Source: Candidatus Micrarchaeota archaeon
GTDB taxonomy: Archaea > Micrarchaeota > Micrarchaeia > Anstonellales > JAGGVH01
Assembly (NCBI GenBank): GCA_020854835.1
Contig: JAHKLX010000022.1
Span: 55,242-119,241 of the forward strand
Direction of reading: 5' to 3'
DNA: 64,000 nucleotides
Part shown: positions 46 through 55,945 of the stretch, one piece after another
How the letters are laid out: every line of letters begins with the position of its first letter
Position numbering within the stretch: the stretch's first letter is position 1
The notes under the pieces: model-generated
The model's input: only the letters and a program-made list of their open reading frames with translations
Databases searched by the model: none
What the model was told of the DNA's origin: nothing
Program-made: the position numbers and the translations under genes

Positions 46-1110
46 ATGTTTAACACTCCCCCTTTTTCTTCTTTTGAAGAAGAAGTCAAAGACAATACCA
101 AAATACGAATTGCAGTGGTGGGTGTAGGTGGCGGTGGTGTTAACACCGTCCACCGAATCACCAACCTCGGTATTAAATCAGCAGATACCATTGCAGTTAA
201 TACAGATAAATTACATTTAGATACAACTAACGCATCTAAAAAAATTTTACTTGCACCAAGCATTACTAAAGGATTGGGTGCAGGAGGATTTCCAGAAGTA
301 GGTCAAAAAGCTGCTGAAATGAGTAGTGATGCATTGGCTTCTGCTTTAGAAGGTTACGATTTAATTTTTTTAACTTCAGGAATGGGTGGAGGAACTGGAA
401 CTGGAGGTGCGCCAGTAGTTGCAAAACTTGCTAAAGCAGCAGGAGCACTTGTTGTCGGAATTGTGACCTATCCTTTTAATTTAGAAAGAGCCAGAATAAA
501 AAAAGCAAAATGGGGAATAAACGAGCTAACTAAACACTGTGATACAGTTATTGTTATTGACAATAACAGGCTGGTAGAATACGCTCCTGATCTCCCAATG
601 AATAAGGCGTTTGAGCTTGTTGATATGATCACTGCCAAAGCAGTCAAAGGTATAGCAGATACAATCATGTTCCCCTCTTTAATGAATATTGATTATGCAG
701 ATGTTAAATCAATTATGGAAGGTGGCGGAATTGCTATGATTTCAATTGGAAGAGCATCAGGCCATGACAAAATCGAGAAGGTTGTTGAAAGTGCTTTAAA
801 ACATCCTTTGTTAGATGTCAGTTATGCTGGTGCAAAAGGTGCATTAGTGCACGTCGGCAGCAGTGAAAAATTATGTTTGGGAGATGCAGTTAAAATTGGT
901 GAAAATTTAACAAGTGCTTTTGATTTAAACGCTAACGTTAAATTGGGTGCAAGAATACTTGAAGATTTTGATGACAGTATTGAGGTTATTTTAATTGCAA
1001 CTGGCGTTAAGTCCTCCATAATAGAGTCATCGTGCGGGCATAATTCTGAATCACAAAGGGAAAGTGTTGAAGCTGATGAAAGTTTTGTAGAAGACTTCGC
1101 TTTTATTTAA
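46..1110 (+). CDS. ftsZ: Cell division GTPase FtsZ
   Basis: Tubulin signature GMGGGTGTGGAPVVAKLAK and an N-terminal VVGVGGGGVN GTP-binding loop. GAGGTGA SD lies 5 nt upstream of the ATG. Confidence 0.95.
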   Translation: MFNTPPFSSFEEEVKDNTKIRIAVVGVGGGGVNTVHRITNLGIKSADTIAVNTDKLHLDTTNASKKILLAPSITKGLGAGGFPEVGQKAAEMSSDALASALEGYDLIFLTSGMGGGTGTGGAPVVAKLAKAAGALVVGIVTYPFNLERARIKKAKWGINELTKHCDTVIVIDNNRLVEYAPDLPMNKAFELVDMITAKAVKGIADTIMFPSLMNIDYADVKSIMEGGGIAMISIGRASGHDKIEKVVESALKHPLLDVSYAGAKGALVHVGSSEKLCLGDAVKIGENLTSAFDLNANVKLGARILEDFDDSIEVILIATGVKSSIIESSCGHNSESQRESVEADESFVEDFAFI

Positions 1111-45150: not shown

Positions 45151-45371
45151 TTACATACCGCAATACCATTGTTTTGGTTTACTTCACAATGCCAAAGATT
45201 GCATGTTTCTGTTTGTCCAACATAAAAATCTTCTGCAACTTGTTCGTCAGGAACAAATGCCGCAGCTCTTGTGTTTGAGTTAAGTGATCCACTTGATCCG
45301 CCGTATGCTACTACTCCTATTAGCACAATGACAACAAGTGCAAAAAATATTCCCAATTCTTTTCTATTCAT
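45138..45371 (-). CDS. Small secreted or membrane-anchored cysteine-containing protein
   Basis: ATG 45371 lies 6 nt after an AGAGGTG SD. N-terminal hydrophobic segment IFFALVVIVLIGVVA. Four Cys near the C-terminus. Overlaps the rnp4 start. Confidence 0.45.
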   Translation of the reverse strand: MNRKELGIFFALVVIVLIGVVAYGGSSGSLNSNTRAAAFVPDEQVAEDFYVGQTETCNLWHCEVNQNNGIAVCKCEQ

Positions 45372-45392
45372 TCTGCACACCTCTTTATTGGA

Positions 45393-45503
45393 TGGGCCAG
45401 GCCGGACTTGAACCGGCGACCTACGGTTTGCTCAGACATGAGAAACTTGCGCCAGAACGGGTCATATAAGACCGTCGCTCTAACCAGACTGAGCTACTGG
45501 CCC
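45393..45503 (-). tRNA. Intron-containing tRNA, most likely tRNA-Ile(UAU) with a 36-nt intron at the canonical 37/38 position
   Basis: The reverse complement reads GGGCCAG-TA-GCTC-AGTCTGGTTA-GAGC-G-ACGGT-CTTATA[36 nt]A-ACCGT-AGGTC-GCCGG-TTCAAGT-CCGGC-CTGGCCC-A. All four stems pair perfectly. The T-loop is TTCAAGT. CCA is not encoded. Confidence 0.85.
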
Positions 45504-45528
45504 CCAATTAATGTTAGTATATAGATGA

Positions 45529-45540
45529 AAGTTTTTAAAG
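45529..45540 (-). promoter_or_regulatory. TATA-like box for the tRNA gene
   Basis: On the minus strand, CTTTAAAAAC lies about 28-37 nt upstream of tRNA position 1. Confidence 0.45.
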
Positions 45541-45571
45541 CTTTACACAATCTAAACTATAAGGTGAATAA

Positions 45572-48079: not shown

Positions 48080-51000
48080 TTGAATAATAATACTGTTTGC
48101 TCAAATACATTGGATTTAAATGGTACATGGTCATCTTATCCAAATAATGACTGGTCTAATTCAACTTATGATACGTCCGACCCTGATAATCACATTTATT
48201 TTGATAGAATTTCTTGGTGTAATGGCACTGAGTTCACTTACACTCCGATCAATGTTACTTTAACCGGTCCAGCAAATGGAGCGTTAATTACTGAAGATTC
48301 AACAACATTAAATTATACTGTTAACATTGAAGCGAACTGTACTGTTTATCACAACATAACTGGCTGGCGCGCAGACTGCGAGACAAACGGGACAACTGGC
48401 GCATCATGCGGAGTCAATTCAATGGAAGATGGAGTTTATGAATGGAATGTTTATTGTGTTGACGCTAATGATGAAATAAACAGTGCGTGGGCAGAAGAAA
48501 CTAATCGGACATTTACTGTTAACACAGGGTTTATTCAAGGAGTTTGCGAACAAACAATAACCAAAGATGCGACCCTTACAGAAAATTTAGATTGCAGGGA
48601 TGAAAAAGGGATAATAATCGGAGCGGACAATCTTGTAATTGATTGTGATAATTATAACCTAACTGGTGACGGAACGTATTTGGGTATAGAAATTAATGGT
48701 TACAATAACATAACAGTTCAAAACTGCAACATATATACTTTTGCAACTGGAATTTCATTGGCACATACTGTTAACAATACCATTCAAAACAATTACATGG
48801 AAGATAATGGTTTCGCTCCTACGACAGGAATTAATTTGTATAATGCGAATTACACAGACATTTTAGATAACATAATTGTTTCCGATAGGGGAGATGGAGT
48901 TCACCTTGAAGAGAGTTTTTACAATAATTTGGAAAGAAATAATGCGAGCACTAACGCAAGACATGGATTTTATATAGAATTAAGTGATAACAATACTTTA
49001 ACAGATAACATTGCAGTATCCAACGGAAAATACGGTTTTTATGTTGAGTTAAGTTATTACAACATTTTAACAGGCAATTATGCAGGTTATAATGGTTATG
49101 ATGGATTATATTTATCGGGAAGCGATAATAATACCTTAATTGAAAATGTTGTAGAAAACAATTATTTCAACGGTTTGTTTTTAGACGGAAGCTCTTACAA
49201 TATTTTAACTGGTAATGAAGTGAGCGGGCATCCACTGGGAGAACCAAGCGGATATTTTGGTTTAGGATTACTTGACAATTCAAATTTTAACACATTGGAA
49301 GATAACTTAATGACCAATAATTTTATAGGATTGTATTTGTTTGGCGTTCATAATAATACATTTATTAATACCACCACAACAAATAATACGTACGGTACTC
49401 AACAATTTATAGATGCGGACAATACTTTTATAGACACTTATGCGTGCGGAAACGATGTTTATGATATACTCGAGGATGATTTAAACAACACTTGGATACG
49501 CACCATTTATTCAATTTCTGATGCAAATGCAACCTATCTTGACCAGATAGCAACATGCCCGATCGTGCAGGGTGTCTGCGGACAGATTATTGGAATAAAT
49601 ACTGTATTAACTGAAGATATTATTTGTGAAGATGGAGATTTAGGTGAAGGTGAAGCCGCTTTAAGCATTGTTGCCGATAGTATAACAATAGATTGTAATG
49701 GTTATGCATTGGTAGGTTATGAAGGCATAGGTATAGGCATAGAAGGAGTTGGTTATGATGGAATAACACTTGTTAATTGTAATATAACTAATTTCTTGAC
49801 TGGTGTTTATATTGAAGATTCTATCGGAACTGAAATTTATGATAATCATGTACATTACAATGGAATGTGGCGTCCCGATGATACTGGAATTCATTTCTAT
49901 AATGTAAACTATTCTTCAATATACAATAATTTTGTTTATGAAAATGATATCGGAATAGTATTGGAAGATTCAAATGAAAATGAGATTTATGGCAATGAAA
50001 TTTATGAAAACTTAGGTTCTGGAATAGAATTTTACAATTCAATACATAATGAAGTATATGAAAATGAAATTTACTTTAATATGTATGGTATGTATTTTGA
50101 AAATACTAATAATACATTAATGTATGACAATTTAGTATGTTTAAATGATCTTATTGATATTCTTTTCCGTGAAGATGCTGAAGGAAATGAGGGAGAAAAT
50201 ATTTGTAATGTCTTAAATGATATCGCCGAGTCTAATGCAGAAGTTTCCTGCCCGACAGGATGCCCATATTATGGGACTTGTGGAGCTGAAATAGGTAATA
50301 GTATTATTTTTGGTAAAGACATGGAAAATTGCGAAAATGGATTATTAATCACTGCATCTGATGTTGTAATTGATTGTAATGGTTATGGAATTTATGGAGA
50401 TAATACAAGTGGGGGATTTGGAATAGTAGTAGATTCAGTAGATAATGTAACCATACATAATTGTACTATTAAATATTTTGGAGAAGGAATTGCACTATTC
50501 GGCTCTAATGGTAGTACTATTACTAACAATCATTTAGATTCAAACGGAGTAGGCAGTATAGGTACAGGTATTTTAATGATTGAAAGCAACTACACTACTG
50601 TTCAGAATAATCTTATTGAAAATGATCTTGGGAATGGTATATATGTTCTTTTAGGAAATCTCAATACCATCGCAAATAATGAGTTAATCAATAATTATTA
50701 CGGAATGTTAGTTGAAGGTTCAAATAATAACTCAATAGAAGATAATATTTGCAATGAAAATTTAGAAGGAATTGTTTTATCTGACAGTTCAAATTACAAT
50801 ACCTTATTAAGAAATACTGTAAACAGGAACGAATTATTTGGAATTTATTTGACTGGCCCCAGCATGCACAATTATTTAATTGAAAATACTGTCAGTCAAA
50901 ATTATGGGGGCCCCTCTTATGGAATTTTGATTGATACTGGTGCCGATAATAATACGCTAACAAACAATACTGTTATTCAAAATGATGTAGGTATTTCAAT

Positions 51001-52912
51001 TGACTCTGCAGACAACACATTAACAGATAATTTTGCGTGTTCGAATACAAATTTTGATGTCACAGATTCTTTAAACGAAAGCACATGGACAAGAACAACT
51101 TACACCCTATCTGATCCTATAAATACAACTTACTTTGATCAATTGGATACTTGCCCCTTCCTACAAGGTGTCTGTGGACAGACAATAACTGAAAGCATAA
51201 CTTTGACAGAAGATATGGATTGTTCTTGGACAAATATTGATGGTATAAAGGTTATTGGTGCAGGAGATTTAGTAATTGACTGCGATGGACACAAACTAAT
51301 CGGTGACGGTGGAGAAGAGGGGAATGTAGGCATATACATCTTAGAACAAAATAATATTGAAATACTCAATTGCGAAATAGAAGGATTCTTTTATGGAATA
51401 GAAATAGATACGGGGGATAATGTTAGTGTAGAAGATTCGAATATACATGATAATACTTGTGAGGGTTTGTATATTTATGAATCAAACACAACAGTCAAAA
51501 ACACAATTTTCCAAGACAATTTGGATTTATGCGCCAGAACAGGTTTGTACCTCTCAGCTTCAACTTTACACCTATTCAACAGCCATTTCATTAATAACGA
51601 TGAATATGGGTTGTATGAAGAATTCAGAGTAGAGTTGGACACAGTCTACTGGACAATAGAGGATTATGCATCATGTATAGATAATAATATGCAGTTTAGT
51701 ACAGAAGACGGATACATAACTTTTGACGGTGGAATATTACATCTAGACAACTGTGTTTTAGAAATTTATAATCAAGAAACAGAAACATGGGCAAATTGGA
51801 CAATTACGGGCAACATGACAGATTATGTTCCGCCAAAAGAAATGGAAGAAAATGATACTGCAACATTTGAATTTGATAATTCAGACACACAAATAGACTT
51901 AAATTTAAATGACACTGTTAATGCCTCAGTTTTTGTAGGTTTGTTGGATGATGAAGATGTGGGCAGTTTAGGAATCGGACCAATCGGTATGTTACCTTTC
52001 AAAGGTATTCAAGTAGAATTAAACGAAGATGCAAACAATACATTAAATTGGGCAATAATTAGAATATATTATACAGATGCAGAATTAGATGCATTAGGAA
52101 TTGAAGAGTCCTCATTAAGAATGTACTATTTCAATGAAACATCTGGTGAATGGGAACTTGTAGAAGAGCAGGGAATCGTTACAACTCCTCCTAAATATGT
52201 TTGGGGAAATGTAACACATTTCAGTACGTATGCTTTATTTGGTGAGGAAGCAGAAGAGGCAGATGACGACGATGATGACGACGATGATGACGATCCAGTA
52301 AGAAGAGGTGGAAGTGGAGGGGGAGCAGTTGCAGTTGGCTCAAGACCTCCAGCAGATGAAGAAGATGAAGATGATACAACTGAACAAGATGTAATTGATG
52401 ATATTATACCAGAAATAATCCCTCCAGTTCAACCATATAAATGTTATGAAATGACATGGAATTATGAATACAACAATTTAATCAACCAACCAGTAACAAT
52501 AACAGTTTTAGCAAACGATCAACCAGCTGAAAATGTTTTAATTGACATTGTTTCACCATTAAACAAAATAATTTCTTTAACAACTGACGCAACAGGCAGA
52601 GCAACTTTCACACCAGATTATGAAGGCATCTACAAAGCACAAATAAGAAGCTGTGATACAAAAGGTTCAATAAACGTTTTAACATCAATGCCCTCAGTTA
52701 AACCTCCAACAACAGAACCAGATCCTGGATCAACAATAGTTGAACCAGAACAACAAACAGATTGGCTTTGTATTGGTGCAATAATTGTCATTGTTTTGAT
52801 AATAGGAGTTGCGGTTCTTGGTGGAGCAGGCGGACTTGCTGCTTTAGGAGCAACAGGGAAAACACCAATAGGTAGTTCTCCTGATAAAAGTCTTCCTAAA
52901 AAACGCAAATAA
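48080..52912 (+). CDS. C-terminal part of the same beta-helix surface protein: multiple PbH1 modules, poly-Asp linker, Ig-like domain, C-terminal TM anchor
   Basis: The frame is open from 48047 and has no ATG or SD of its own (the track uses TTG 48080). It repeats the QGVC.QT...LTED..C...D..VIDC.G..L.G cap modules, carries an 11-residue poly-Asp run, and ends in WLCIGAIIVIVLIIGVAVLGGAG followed by the basic tail PKKRK. Confidence 0.8.
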   Translation: MNNNTVCSNTLDLNGTWSSYPNNDWSNSTYDTSDPDNHIYFDRISWCNGTEFTYTPINVTLTGPANGALITEDSTTLNYTVNIEANCTVYHNITGWRADCETNGTTGASCGVNSMEDGVYEWNVYCVDANDEINSAWAEETNRTFTVNTGFIQGVCEQTITKDATLTENLDCRDEKGIIIGADNLVIDCDNYNLTGDGTYLGIEINGYNNITVQNCNIYTFATGISLAHTVNNTIQNNYMEDNGFAPTTGINLYNANYTDILDNIIVSDRGDGVHLEESFYNNLERNNASTNARHGFYIELSDNNTLTDNIAVSNGKYGFYVELSYYNILTGNYAGYNGYDGLYLSGSDNNTLIENVVENNYFNGLFLDGSSYNILTGNEVSGHPLGEPSGYFGLGLLDNSNFNTLEDNLMTNNFIGLYLFGVHNNTFINTTTTNNTYGTQQFIDADNTFIDTYACGNDVYDILEDDLNNTWIRTIYSISDANATYLDQIATCPIVQGVCGQIIGINTVLTEDIICEDGDLGEGEAALSIVADSITIDCNGYALVGYEGIGIGIEGVGYDGITLVNCNITNFLTGVYIEDSIGTEIYDNHVHYNGMWRPDDTGIHFYNVNYSSIYNNFVYENDIGIVLEDSNENEIYGNEIYENLGSGIEFYNSIHNEVYENEIYFNMYGMYFENTNNTLMYDNLVCLNDLIDILFREDAEGNEGENICNVLNDIAESNAEVSCPTGCPYYGTCGAEIGNSIIFGKDMENCENGLLITASDVVIDCNGYGIYGDNTSGGFGIVVDSVDNVTIHNCTIKYFGEGIALFGSNGSTITNNHLDSNGVGSIGTGILMIESNYTTVQNNLIENDLGNGIYVLLGNLNTIANNELINNYYGMLVEGSNNNSIEDNICNENLEGIVLSDSSNYNTLLRNTVNRNELFGIYLTGPSMHNYLIENTVSQNYGGPSYGILIDTGADNNTLTNNTVIQNDVGISIDSADNTLTDNFACSNTNFDVTDSLNESTWTRTTYTLSDPINTTYFDQLDTCPFLQGVCGQTITESITLTEDMDCSWTNIDGIKVIGAGDLVIDCDGHKLIGDGGEEGNVGIYILEQNNIEILNCEIEGFFYGIEIDTGDNVSVEDSNIHDNTCEGLYIYESNTTVKNTIFQDNLDLCARTGLYLSASTLHLFNSHFINNDEYGLYEEFRVELDTVYWTIEDYASCIDNNMQFSTEDGYITFDGGILHLDNCVLEIYNQETETWANWTITGNMTDYVPPKEMEENDTATFEFDNSDTQIDLNLNDTVNASVFVGLLDDEDVGSLGIGPIGMLPFKGIQVELNEDANNTLNWAIIRIYYTDAELDALGIEESSLRMYYFNETSGEWELVEEQGIVTTPPKYVWGNVTHFSTYALFGEEAEEADDDDDDDDDDDPVRRGGSGGGAVAVGSRPPADEEDEDDTTEQDVIDDIIPEIIPPVQPYKCYEMTWNYEYNNLINQPVTITVLANDQPAENVLIDIVSPLNKIISLTTDATGRATFTPDYEGIYKAQIRSCDTKGSINVLTSMPSVKPPTTEPDPGSTIVEPEQQTDWLCIGAIIVIVLIIGVAVLGGAGGLAALGATGKTPIGSSPDKSLPKKRK

Positions 52913-52974: not shown

Positions 52975-54723
52975 ATGAAAGCTTCAGAATTAAAAAAGTT
53001 ATATATTGATTTCTTCAAATCTAAAGGTCATGCTGTGATAGAATCAAATTCACTTGTACCCGAACATGATCCAACTGTTTTATTTACAACAGCAGGAATG
53101 CACCCTTTAGTTCCCTATATTCTTGGTCAGAAACATCCTTTGGGGAAAAGACTAGTTAATGTTCAAAAATGCTTAAGAACAGATGACATAAATGAAATTG
53201 GAGATTATTATCACCATACTTTCTTTGAAATGCTTGGTAATTGGTCATTGGGAGATTACTTTAAAATTGAAGCAATTGAATATAGTTTTGAATTTTTAAC
53301 TGAGATATTGAAAATACCTTTGAATAAATTGGCAATAACTTGTTTTGCAGGAGATGATGACTCTCCAAAGGATGAAGTATCTGCAAACGTCTGGAAAGCT
53401 TTGGGTATTTCTGAAGAACGAATTGTTTTTCTAGGGAAAAAACATAATTGGTGGGGTCCCCCTGGGGCAACAGGTCCTTGTGGTCCAGACACTGAAATGT
53501 TTTATTGGGCAGACGAAAGCAAACCCCCTGAAAAATTTGATCCTGAAGATGATAGATGGGTAGAGATATGGAATGATGTTTTCATTCAATATGAAAAAAC
53601 ATCAGAGGGGAAATATATTCCCCTAAAACAAAAATGTGTTGACACAGGTTTGGGTGTTGAAAGAGTTTCAGCAGTTTTACAAGGATATATGGATAATTAT
53701 AAGACCGAACTTTTCTGGCCCATCATCGAAAAAATCCAAGAATTAACAAAAAAAGATTACCAAGACAACAAAAAAATAATGAGAATCATTGCAGACCACA
53801 CACGTGCCGCAGTTTTTATTCTGGGGGATGAAAGAGATGTTGTCCCTTCAAATGTTGATCAAGGTTATATCTTAAGAAGATTGGTTCGAAGAGTTATTCG
53901 CCATATGAAAATGCTTGGCTGTGAAAAATCAATGAGTATTCTGGCAGGAGAAGTAATTTCAATATATCAAACCAATTATTCTTCATTAAATTCAAAAAAA
54001 GAATATATATTGGGTGAATTGGAAAAAGAAGAAACAAAATTCCAAAAAACATTAGAAAAGGGATTAAAAGAATTTGAAAAAATAACTGAAAATTCAAACG
54101 AATTACTTGGAAAAGACGCGTTTTTATTATTCCAAAGTTATGGTTTTCCCATTGAATTAACAAAAGAATTATGCAACGAACAAGGAATAATTTTGGATAA
54201 AAAAGGATTTGAAAGAGAATACGAAAAACACCAAATGCTTTCAAGGGTTGGTGCAGAGCAAAAATTTAAAGGAGGATTGAGCGAAGCATCTGATGAAACA
54301 AAAAAACTCCATACTGCAACCCACCTTTTAAATGAAGCCTTGCGCAGAGTTTTATCTTCAGATATCAAACAAAAAGGAAGCAACATAAATTCTAAAAGAC
54401 TGCGATTTGATTTTAATTTTGATAGAAAATTAACTGAAGAAGAAATCAAGAGGATTGAGGATGAAATCAACCGAATTATAGGATTAAATTTACCCATAAC
54501 TGCACAAGAAATGCCTCTACAAAAGGCTTTGGATTCTGGGGCTCAGGCAGAATTTGGTGCGAAATATCCTGATGTAGTTACAGTTTATTATGTTGGTGAT
54601 TATTCAAAGGAGATTTGCATGGGTCCTCACGTTGAGAATACTAAGGACTTAGGGAGTTTCAAAATATTAAAAGAAGAATCAAGTGCAGCAGGAATAAGAA
54701 GAATAAAAGCAGTTTTAGAATAA
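52975..54723 (+). CDS. alaS: Alanine--tRNA ligase, bacterial-type N-terminus, short form without a C-Ala domain
   Basis: LYIDFFKSKGHAVIESNSLVPEHDPTVLFTTAGMHPLVPYILG, FFEMLGNWSLGDYFK and GPCGPDTEMF, plus the editing-domain motifs HTATHLL and CMGPH. Total length is only 582 aa. Confidence 0.9.
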   Translation: MKASELKKLYIDFFKSKGHAVIESNSLVPEHDPTVLFTTAGMHPLVPYILGQKHPLGKRLVNVQKCLRTDDINEIGDYYHHTFFEMLGNWSLGDYFKIEAIEYSFEFLTEILKIPLNKLAITCFAGDDDSPKDEVSANVWKALGISEERIVFLGKKHNWWGPPGATGPCGPDTEMFYWADESKPPEKFDPEDDRWVEIWNDVFIQYEKTSEGKYIPLKQKCVDTGLGVERVSAVLQGYMDNYKTELFWPIIEKIQELTKKDYQDNKKIMRIIADHTRAAVFILGDERDVVPSNVDQGYILRRLVRRVIRHMKMLGCEKSMSILAGEVISIYQTNYSSLNSKKEYILGELEKEETKFQKTLEKGLKEFEKITENSNELLGKDAFLLFQSYGFPIELTKELCNEQGIILDKKGFEREYEKHQMLSRVGAEQKFKGGLSEASDETKKLHTATHLLNEALRRVLSSDIKQKGSNINSKRLRFDFNFDRKLTEEEIKRIEDEINRIIGLNLPITAQEMPLQKALDSGAQAEFGAKYPDVVTVYYVGDYSKEICMGPHVENTKDLGSFKILKEESSAAGIRRIKAVLE

Positions 54724-54960
54724 CTATTTCTTTTTTATTACCATAATCAAAACAATGATTGCCCCCAGACAACTAAGCCCATTTAATCCTGCAAGTACTG
54801 GGTCAGAGCTATATGTTTCAACTATAATAAAGAATATCCCTAATGCTTGTAAGACAGCAAAAACAGGTGAAATGGTTTTTTCATTTTTGTTTTTAAACAA
54901 CAAGTATATCTGAAACGACCATGCTATTATAATCAAACAAAGCCCAATCCACGATAACAT
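54724..54960 (-). CDS. Small three-helix membrane protein
   Basis: A 78-aa protein with three hydrophobic helices. Loosely resembles 3-TM PQ-loop/LAB_N-type proteins, but no diagnostic motif is seen. Confidence 0.4.
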   Translation of the reverse strand: MLSWIGLCLIIIAWSFQIYLLFKNKNEKTISPVFAVLQALGIFFIIVETYSSDPVLAGLNGLSCLGAIIVLIMVIKKK

Positions 54961-55032: not shown

Positions 55033-55042
55033 TTTATAAATA
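55033..55042 (+). promoter_or_regulatory. TATA box for the downstream structured RNA gene
   Basis: TTTATAAATA is centred about 27 nt upstream of the first G of the closing helix at 55064. Confidence 0.5.
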
Positions 55043-55063
55043 TCACTGTTTTATAGAATTAGT

Positions 55064-55289
55064 GGATGGCAAGGACTATTCGGTTGCTCTGGAAAGAGTG
55101 TGACCATATAGGCCTCTGACATGCATTCAGCCAGTAATGTGGTGACTGGACTATAACTCACTTCATGAAACCTGTGTATGCTACGCTGGTGTATGGCTCA
55201 AAGGAGATAACCTTAGAGTGGGAGGGTAGGTTAGGATTTAGGCCCAGAAACACTTGAGGCACTTCTTTACCGAGTCCAGTATGCCATCC
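55064..55289 (+). ncRNA. Unclassified structured RNA, about 226 nt
   Basis: A local GC-enriched island in an AT-rich genome, with no plausible ORF. An 8-bp closing helix GGAUGGCA/UGCCAUCC (55064-71 / 55282-89) extends into GGACU/AGUCC and CGG/CCG. There is a CUCU-GGAA-AGAG GNRA hairpin at 55087-98. TATA box upstream and a T-rich tract downstream. Confidence 0.6.
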
Positions 55290-55300
55290 TTTATATTTTT
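55290..55300 (+). terminator. Oligo-T tract after the structured RNA
   Basis: TTTATATTTTT lies directly after the closing helix. Archaeal termination typically uses T-runs. Confidence 0.4.
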
Positions 55301-55322
55301 AACAAATAAGGTGGTGTTTTTT

Positions 55323-55655
55323 ATGGTGGTTAAAAAAGTAAGGGGAAAAGTATCTAAAACAGTTAAAGGTGCTGTTAAAACCAAAAAGAAAGCAGTGAAA
55401 AAAGTATCTAAAACAGTTAAAGGTGCTGTTAAAACCAAAAAGAAAGCAGTTAAAAAAGTATCTAAAACAGTTAAAGGTGCTGTTAAAACCAAAAAGAAAG
55501 CAGTGAAAAAAGTAAGCGGTAAAATATCTAAAACAGCTAGTAGAGTAAAGAAAAAAATAACTTCTGCAATCTCTATCTTAACAAAGAAAAAACCCCGCAC
55601 CAAAAGTAAAAAATCAAAAAAATCTAAAATCGAAAAAATGAAAAAATTAATTTAA
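55323..55655 (+). CDS. Lysine-rich repeat protein (linker-histone-like low-complexity basic protein)
   Basis: ATG 55323 lies about 8 nt after a GGTGGTG SD. The unit KKVSKTVKGAVKTKKKAV occurs three times, plus one degenerate copy. The track start at 55254 would run through the RNA gene. Confidence 0.6.
   Translation: MVVKKVRGKVSKTVKGAVKTKKKAVKKVSKTVKGAVKTKKKAVKKVSKTVKGAVKTKKKAVKKVSGKISKTASRVKKKITSAISILTKKKPRTKSKKSKKSKIEKMKKLI
55350..55511 (+). repeat. Three near-perfect 54-bp in-frame tandem repeats
   Basis: Copies start at 55350, 55404 and 55458, and I see one substitution among them (G/T in cagtGaaaa vs cagtTaaaa). A diverged fourth copy starts at 55512. Confidence 0.9.
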
Positions 55656-55810: not shown

Positions 55811-55945
55811 TTATTTTTTAAGAAATTTTGAAAGCACATTACAGAGGCAGCATCCTTGTTTTTTTTCACCTGCTTCTTTCTTAGCTTTTGCTCTTCCTCT
55901 ATGAACCTTTTTTCTAGTTTGTCTTCTTTTTGCTGGTTCTTTCAT
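55811..55945 (-). CDS. Candidate 44-aa basic small protein (below the ORF-track cut-off)
   Basis: My manual translation gives MKEPAKRRQTRKKVHRGRAKAKKEAGEKKQGCCLCNVLSKFLKK. The ATG is preceded by GAGGTGA at 5-nt spacing. No family recognised. Confidence 0.3.
   Translation of the reverse strand: MKEPAKRRQTRKKVHRGRAKAKKEAGEKKQGCCLCNVLSKFLKK

Follow-up and report, generated by a model that had tools for sequence, protein, structure and literature searches.

A G+C-rich island in a DPANN archaeal genome as a probable orphan structured RNA of a single species

An island of 226 nt in an AT-rich archaeal genome probably represents an orphan structured RNA, found in a single species. It was analysed within a stretch of 64,000 nucleotides of DNA (the window, whose first letter is position 1), and we give about an even chance to the proposal that it is a genuine, independently promoted and compactly folded RNA of unassigned class, tentatively a protein-binding scaffold that is possibly co-expressed with a basic protein. 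DPANN archaea are uncultivated organisms with tiny genomes, and their repertoire of non-coding RNAs is almost unexplored. Should the RNA prove real and conserved, it would represent a stable RNA specific to its lineage, in a size class whose only other occupants are RNase P and SRP RNA, and it may be linked to an unusual histone-H1-like basic protein. Its present value is that of a target with clear limits, for which a 5' end and a fold have been predicted; it is not yet a discovery.

Results

Composition and coding potential of the island

The window has a mean G+C content of 32.3% and carries archaeal genes for S19e, eIF6, prefoldin, TFE, Rrp4, a Pelota/aRF1-like protein, Tyw1 and two FtsZ proteins. 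The island is flanked on one side by a membrane ORF of 78 aa on the - strand (54724-54960) and on the other by a lysine-rich repeat ORF of 110 aa (55323-55655, K-rich ORF hereafter). Its G+C content reaches 47.8%, a level attained by only 0.011% of all 226-nt windows, and the maximum of the whole window is localised exactly at its coordinates (Table 1). The sole other site in the 64 kb with such a content is an intron-containing tRNA (45279-45509), and the other ORF-free intergenic gaps of the window show values of 19-30%. On the + strand G (62) exceeds C (46), and the island is present as a single copy in the 84 kb of genome formed by the window and 10 kb on each side.

Stop codons interrupt all six frames, and the frame fragments gave no Pfam matches. 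For an open stretch of 39 aa, which contains an internal 31-aa ATG ORF, a search of 1.84 billion protein representatives brought up no true relative. A pseudogene or a small protein was discarded: there is no Pfam match, and the lone phmmer match was summed noise on a 4001-aa repeat protein. The first-pass annotation of this DNA had been right in the coordinates and the length of 226 nt, in the G+C enrichment and in the lack of a credible ORF.

Table 1. Coordinates of the island, its predicted elements and its surroundings in the window
Feature	Position	Strand	Remarks
TATA-box-like promoter motif TTTATAAAT	55033..55041	+	matches TTTWWAWAH
Candidate structured ncRNA	55064..55289	+	226 nt, 47.8% G+C, G62/C46
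Terminal helix P1, 5' strand GGAUGGCA	55064..55071	+	nt 1-8, pairs with 55282-55289
Long irregular 44-nt hairpin	55072..55115	+	nt 9-52, GGAA tetraloop cap at 55091-55094
Domain-closing helix, 5' strand ACUGGACU	55145..55152	+	nt 82-89, pairs with 55273-55280
Domain-closing helix, 3' strand AGUCCAGU	55273..55280	+	nt 210-217, ensemble fold
Terminal helix P1, 3' strand UGCCAUCC	55282..55289	+	nt 219-226
T-rich tract TTTATATTTTT	55290..55300	+	immediately 3' of P1, contains T5
Lysine-rich repeat protein gene, 110 aa	55323..55655	+	Shine-Dalgarno-like AAGGTGGTG at 55308-55316
1.09-kb segment	54724..55810		78-aa membrane ORF (- strand), RNA, K-rich gene, spacer

Promoter geometry and 3' end

The motif TTTATAAAT ends 22 nt before position 55064. 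A TATA box had already been reported at 55033-55042, and TTTATAAAT followed by an A is indeed present there. It belongs to the promoter motif of this genome, TTTWWAWAH, which mostly takes the form TTTTTAAAC or TTTAAAAAC. In at least 12 window genes lacking a Shine-Dalgarno sequence, 20-21 nt (range 16-23) separate the end of the motif from the ATG, and the mRNAs of these genes are leaderless; in the window genes led by a Shine-Dalgarno sequence (GGTGA type) it is located 37-52 nt upstream. Regular examples of the promoter are found upstream of the genes at 2746-, 3633+, 7340-, 20982+, 23038+, 43068+, 54724- and 56014+, in which the sign gives the strand. In the intergenic DNA of the window, TTTWWAWAH is expected to occupy the appropriate 5-nt slot by chance with a probability of about 0.036; a sigma-70-style promoter scan is not relevant for an archaeon. 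Since TTTATAAAT shows the spacing of the leaderless genes, transcription is predicted to start at 55062-55064, a position that coincides with the first base of the terminal helix or lies at most 2 nt from it.

At the opposite end the flanking tract described in the first-pass annotation, TTTATATTTTT, is present at 55290-55300 and may represent an oligo-T terminator. It overlaps a near-consensus TATA motif, ATTTTTAAC, located 19-20 nt before the next ATG (55323).

Predicted fold

The + strand folds with a minimum free energy (MFE) of -74.7 kcal/mol (z = -2.07) and the - strand with -62.1 (z = -1.42). Among 300 dinucleotide shuffles, between 2 and 5% are as good as the + strand in MFE, ensemble diversity and positional entropy, and 1% in the share of well-determined pairs; the ensemble diversity is 25.9 vs 52.5 in the shuffles, and 43% of the bases are in pairs with P>0.9 vs 19%. 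The - strand is weaker on every folding measure and stays outside the 1-5% tail of the shuffles. In terms of significance, the statistical support for structure in the island is moderate.

Analysing the ensemble it is possible to see that both ends of the RNA are joined by a perfect 8-bp helix, P1 (GGAUGGCA/UGCCAUCC), with a pair probability of 0.97, as the first-pass annotation had proposed. P1 is followed by the long irregular hairpin, formed by the helices 9-11/50-52, 13-16/45-48, 19-22/39-42 and 23-27/32-36 (P 0.78-0.97); its distal part, GCUCU-GGAA-AGAGU, contains the hairpin CUCU-GGAA-AGAG of that same annotation and has a probability of 0.78. Two small hairpins (nt 53-67 and 67-80) precede a further perfect 8-bp helix, ACUGGACU/AGUCCAGU (82-89/210-217, pair probability 0.96), which closes a second domain with three hairpin arms at nt 101-132, 133-156 and 166-208. 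The fold does not change upon addition of the next 61 nt downstream, and no pairing to the Shine-Dalgarno sequence or to the AUG is formed.

Other helices proposed at first sight have fared differently. The complementarities GGACU/AGUCC and CGG/CCG, from which a rod-like base had been drawn, do exist, but the rod is not favoured, AGUCCAGU preferring ACUGGACU (0.96), and enforcing it alone yields -69.5 kcal/mol (a cost of 5). Likewise, CCAGU/ACUGG and UAACCU/AGGUUA are truly complementary, but as hairpins they are competing alternatives and not part of the favoured fold. When all the helices of the first-pass annotation are enforced together the energy is -62.5 vs -74.7 kcal/mol, a cost of 12, and is no better than that of the shuffles. 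The RNA contains several competing complementarities, CACUU occurring three times and GAGUG and GGACU twice each.

Comparison with known RNA families

The Rfam search that had been recommended was carried out with Rfam 15, and the RNA matches no family. At gathering thresholds the search of the whole window found only the tRNA and nothing on the island, and at E<=10 with lax filters, on 551 nt and 236 nt, it returned only noise (mir-7177, trypanosome mitochondrial LSU, Parecho_CRE, SNORA14 and sR36). ARAGORN found nothing on the island, and the covariance models RNaseP_arch, RNaseP-T, the bacterial and nuclear RNase P types, Archaea_SRP and bacterial SRP gave no match to the RNA. A search of the literature on non-coding RNAs and RNase P in DPANN/Woesearchaeota yielded nothing relevant. 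The initial description of a stand-alone, G+C-enriched structured RNA gene outside the known families is supported by the composition, the promoter geometry, the strand-specific folding, the lack of coding signal and the lack of an Rfam match.

The candidate resembles archaeal RNase P RNA (RNaseP_arch RF00373; type T, RNaseP-T RF02357) in being of the class of stable RNAs of 200-330 nt with their own promoter, in the pairing of its 5' and 3' ends in a terminal helix, in forming a G+C-rich island in an AT-rich genome and in containing the string GGAAAG. However, there is no model match at E<=10 and the conserved elements are missing. RNase P RNA carries the universal regions CR-I (GNAANNUCNGNG) and CR-V (ACNNNANNNNGNNUA), which form the P4 pseudoknot. 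Both are matched no better in the RNA than in shuffles: CR-I is matched only at 2 mismatches (4 observed vs 3.2 expected), its best match failing at two of the seven specified positions (the U and the C), and CR-V has no match in the RNA at <=1 mismatch and matches at chance frequency at 2 mismatches. By eye, a pairing of AAAGAGUG (30-37) with CACUUCUUU (197-205) can be drawn, after which come a single A and a helix strand. Nevertheless, two different pairings can be drawn for P4; both of them break well-supported hairpins, the candidate strands lying within hairpins of P 0.78-0.99, and one leaves no P3. This ambiguity counts against the assignment to RNase P. In the comparison of the core, P1 is present, a P2-like pairing is possible at a cost of 5 kcal/mol, and taking GGAAAG as CR-I leaves the RNA without a P3 hairpin. 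RNase P RNA matures the 5' ends of pre-tRNAs together with Pop5, Rpp30, Rpp21 and Rpp29; a scan of 30 window ORFs revealed no gene for an RNase P protein.

Archaeal SRP (7S) RNA (Archaea_SRP RF01857) also has a terminal helix made from both ends and a comparable size class, together with a pair of small neighbouring hairpins beyond the 5' region and a distal domain with hairpin arms, features that the candidate shares. In SRP RNA, SRP54 is bound by helix 8, whose tetraloop is of the GNRA type and whose conserved symmetric loop has AGCA on its 3' side. The candidate differs in lacking this motif and any model match: AGCA occurs nowhere in the 226 nt, and GGAANNNAGCA, used as a test for helix 8, has no match even with 2 mismatches. 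Moreover, the GGAA loop is situated in the 5' hairpin, which is the wrong place, and archaeal SRP RNAs exceed the candidate in length by about 70 nt. The first-pass annotation had likewise seen no convincing SRP or RNase P signatures, in agreement with the absence of AGCA and the chance level of CR-I and CR-V, and had nonetheless offered a divergent SRP RNA and a reduced RNase P RNA as candidates. Neither proposal is supported, the former for want of the helix-8 signature, the latter because of the chance-level regions and of a P4, drawn by eye, that conflicts with the two best-defined hairpins.

The way in which the candidate was detected, as a sharply bounded island that is rich in G+C, free of ORFs and preceded by an archaeal promoter within an AT-rich genome, resembles that of the Hgc RNAs, which Klein, Misulovin and Eddy reportedly found in 2002 by composition screens in Methanocaldococcus and Pyrococcus. 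The candidate shows no sequence or model similarity to HgcC or to other Rfam families. The majority of the Hgc RNAs have since turned out to be guide RNAs of the C/D or H/ACA type; the candidate carries no convincing boxes of these types.

Several other classes were considered and rejected. A tRNA would show a cloverleaf with D and T arms and the T-loop sequence beside the acceptor stem. For a tRNA with a large, giant or non-canonical intron both ARAGORN and the Rfam tRNA model were silent, and inspection by eye revealed no T arm ahead of GCCAUCC; the Rfam tRNA model does find the intron-bearing tRNAs of this organism, yet not the island. Box C/D sRNAs have C (RUGAUGA) and D (CUGA) boxes at their ends and measure about 50-70 nt. 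The only match of this kind was sR36, with 11.3 bits vs a gathering score of 55 and E = 1.3 over the first 60 nt; the RNA contains no UGAUGA and is 226 nt long. H/ACA RNA, the lysine and c-di-AMP riboswitches, the 11-nt tetraloop receptor, Y RNA, 6S RNA, bridge RNA and omega-RNA were dropped, by eye or with Rfam, as the defining motif or the associated gene was missing.

Searches for homologues and the syntenic site

In same-species contigs from at least 7 samples the element is 100% identical, and these contigs are essentially clonal over 9 kb; they are thus uninformative about conservation. The alanyl-tRNA synthetase gene (AlaRS; 52975-54723, +) has a best identity of 68% among 5.8 billion proteins, the nearest named sequences belonging to Woesearchaeota or Nanoarchaeota, and the nearest relatives show identities of 66-71% for DAC and about 68% for AlaRS. 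In the nearest relative the 1.09-kb segment is missing between AlaRS and the conserved 44-48-aa ORF/DAC. At locus L088 the AlaRS stop abuts a 45-aa ORF, and at L091 and L092/L093 other genes occupy the site, so that in the three closest relatives (DAC loci) the RNA, the K-rich gene and the 78-aa gene are jointly absent at the syntenic position.

Searching 80 AlaRS genome loci for the island with blastn and nhmmer gave no match and no common neighbours. Five viral-contig scans (two 20-mers, one 15-mer and two 16-mers) returned nothing or chance, coding or 5S rRNA matches, and BLAST against phages and plasmids returned nothing. A metagenome scan with a G-rich junction 18-mer (R allowed at one position) produced 61 matches, all of them actinobacterial 5S rRNA or chance; it did not return the organism's own contig, which places the lineage outside that collection. 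A single-sequence covariance model, run on archaeal loci totalling about 290 kb, recovered nothing but itself. Since no homologue was found in the collections searched, a new RNA class cannot be claimed.

A G+C-rich and ORF-free island of ~190 nt (L002 7845-8045) lies directly after AlaRS in a relative with 64% AlaRS identity; it has no Rfam match and an MFE z of -1.68. It was rejected as a diverged homologue, being dissimilar in sequence, model score and architecture.

The lysine-rich gene downstream

The K-rich ORF begins 34 nt 3' of the RNA on the same strand, in accordance with its initial placement directly downstream of the island. It consists of 54-nt tandem repeats whose number varies among samples, giving products of 74 and 110 aa, and the protein has no Pfam family and no detectable homologue. 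Two signals precede its ATG, the Shine-Dalgarno-like AAGGTGGTG and, at leaderless spacing, the near-consensus TATA ATTTTTAAC. The former is useful only if transcription starts upstream, so an upstream start is needed, and for this ORF the TATA position usual in Shine-Dalgarno-led genes falls inside the RNA. One of the two signals, either AAGGTGGTG or ATTTTTAAC, is fortuitous. By its adjacency, the K-rich gene is possibly co-transcribed with the RNA or encodes a partner of it.

Discussion

The island stands out by its composition and sharp boundaries, a promoter at the spacing of the genome's leaderless genes, foldability on one strand, and the absence of both coding signal and known-family signatures. 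The expression of the RNA, its stability, its 3' end, its partner and its function are inferred. As the most likely reading we propose that the island is a gene for a compactly folded non-coding RNA of about 226-237 nt, driven by its own promoter, in a DPANN archaeon resembling Woesearchaeota, and that the RNA belongs to no described family. The moderate folding statistics, the competing complementarities, the failure to find homologues in the collections searched and the near-consensus TATA of the K-rich gene weigh against this reading. Transcription would start at the first base of the 8-bp terminal helix, or at most 2 nt from it, and the transcript would fold as a self-contained module in which P1 closes a junction formed by the 44-nt GNRA-capped hairpin, the two small hairpins and the second domain, the latter being shut by another perfect 8-bp helix. 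Such an RNA may act as a stable protein-binding scaffold, for which the lysine-rich repeat protein would be the most plausible partner, and the K-rich ORF would probably be expressed at least in part by read-through from the promoter of the RNA. In its favour, a tRNA of this genome is likewise trailed by a Shine-Dalgarno-led ORF that leaves no space for a promoter, and the RNA, the K-rich gene and the 78-aa gene are jointly missing from the relatives' site. A broader version of this proposal, in which the RNA is a new class limited to a Woesearchaeota lineage, forms a ribonucleoprotein with the K-rich protein or is processed from a transcript shared with it, and was acquired together with it as a small accessory module, seems to us a long shot.

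The island may instead be a structured 5' leader of the K-rich mRNA, starting at the same 55062-55064 and serving in cis, for example, as an autoregulatory site bound by the basic protein or as a stabilising or processing module, a reading that we take seriously and nevertheless judge unlikely. The Shine-Dalgarno sequence AAGGTGGTG, of use only with an upstream start, the TATA slot (37-52 nt) that falls within the G+C-rich element, and the common strand with a gap of only 34 nt all speak for it, and the genome offers a precedent in the tRNA at 45393-45503(-), followed 20 nt further on by a Shine-Dalgarno-led ORF; there being no room for a promoter between them, a tRNA-mRNA co-transcript is implied. 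The arrangement is reminiscent of the autoregulatory leaders of RNA-binding (ribosomal) proteins, in which a structured element is placed just upstream of, and co-oriented with, a very basic Shine-Dalgarno-led gene. However, the element folds autonomously and neither sequesters the Shine-Dalgarno sequence and the AUG nor offers an alternative pairing to them, and the K-rich protein has no known RNA-binding domain. The T5-containing tract after P1 and the near-consensus TATA ATTTTTAAC at leaderless spacing before the ATG also disfavour a leader, and in a genome whose first genes mostly lack leaders a long structured one would be unusual. Quite improbable in our opinion is an origin of the island as non-functional foreign DNA, be it the remnant of a decayed gene or an insertion of the MITE type whose terminal inverted repeats measure 8 bp. 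In that case its G+C content, unlike that of the rest of the genome, would reflect the source and not a selection for structure, and the terminal inverted repeats, the location inside a 1.09-kb segment missing from relatives at this site and the lack of detectable homologues would be accounted for. Against an insertion of this type, the element is single-copy in 84 kb, its flanks (TTAGT and TTTAT) show no target-site duplication and the inverted repeats are of only 8 bp; a gene fragment is countered by the lack of protein similarity in any frame. Furthermore, the island starts just where a promoter with the spacing typical of this genome would place it, and both the folding signal and the excess of G over C are strand-asymmetric.

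We consider very unlikely that the island is a highly divergent or reduced RNase P RNA, or with even less likelihood an SRP RNA, too diverged for the Rfam models. A minimal archaeon is expected to have few stable RNAs of 200-350 nt, these two are universal, and no canonical version of either is found in the 84 kb examined. The TATA of the window tRNA, located 27 nt upstream, predicts a leader of about 7 nt for which a 5'-processing activity is needed. The paired ends, the GGAAAG string and the pairing of AAAGAGUG with CACUUCUUU, with its single A and helix strand as at P4/P2, can be read in the same sense. On the other side, even at E<=10 with lax filters there is no Rfam match, CR-I appears only at 2 mismatches and at chance frequency, CR-V does not appear at <=1 mismatch, and the absent AGCA excludes an SRP helix-8 loop; the candidate P4 would leave no P3 and would destroy two hairpins with P>0.8-0.9. 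The absence of the gene from the relatives' syntenic site also argues against this assignment, weakly, as such genes move.

Other observations on the genome

All three tRNA genes seen contain introns: that of the window (45393-45503, -) has an intron of 37 nt, and two more, spanning 116 nt (L222 2911-3026, +) and 151 nt (L224 8160-8310, -), came to light in the 10 kb added at either end. ARAGORN misses the window tRNA, and the Rfam tRNA model finds all three. The tRNA-ORF arrangement lies at 45350-45545 (-), the tRNA being followed after 20 nt by an ORF with the Shine-Dalgarno sequence AGAGGTG and an ATG at 45371.

The AlaRS encoded next to the island is short (582 aa) and bacterial-like, with 54-56% identity to sequences from Bacilli and CPR, and L091 carries in the same place, on the opposite strand, an AlaRS of 898 aa; these features suggest that the gene was replaced, or transferred between bacteria and DPANN archaea. 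The conserved 44-48-aa ORF is very basic, is equipped with a Shine-Dalgarno sequence and a TATA of its own and belongs to no Pfam family. It is located at 55814-55945 (-) in the window and at L088 5112-5249, L091 4518-4664 and L092 810-953, directly upstream of and divergent from DAC-SecF-SecD in all the relatives. The two FtsZ paralogues are in tandem (L222 8912-11065; window 46-1110). Finally, the window encodes at 48080-52912 (+) a 1610-aa surface protein with NosD/beta-helix repeats, a tract of poly-Asp and, at the C-terminus, a membrane anchor; the called length of its gene varies between assemblies from 1610 to 2105 aa.
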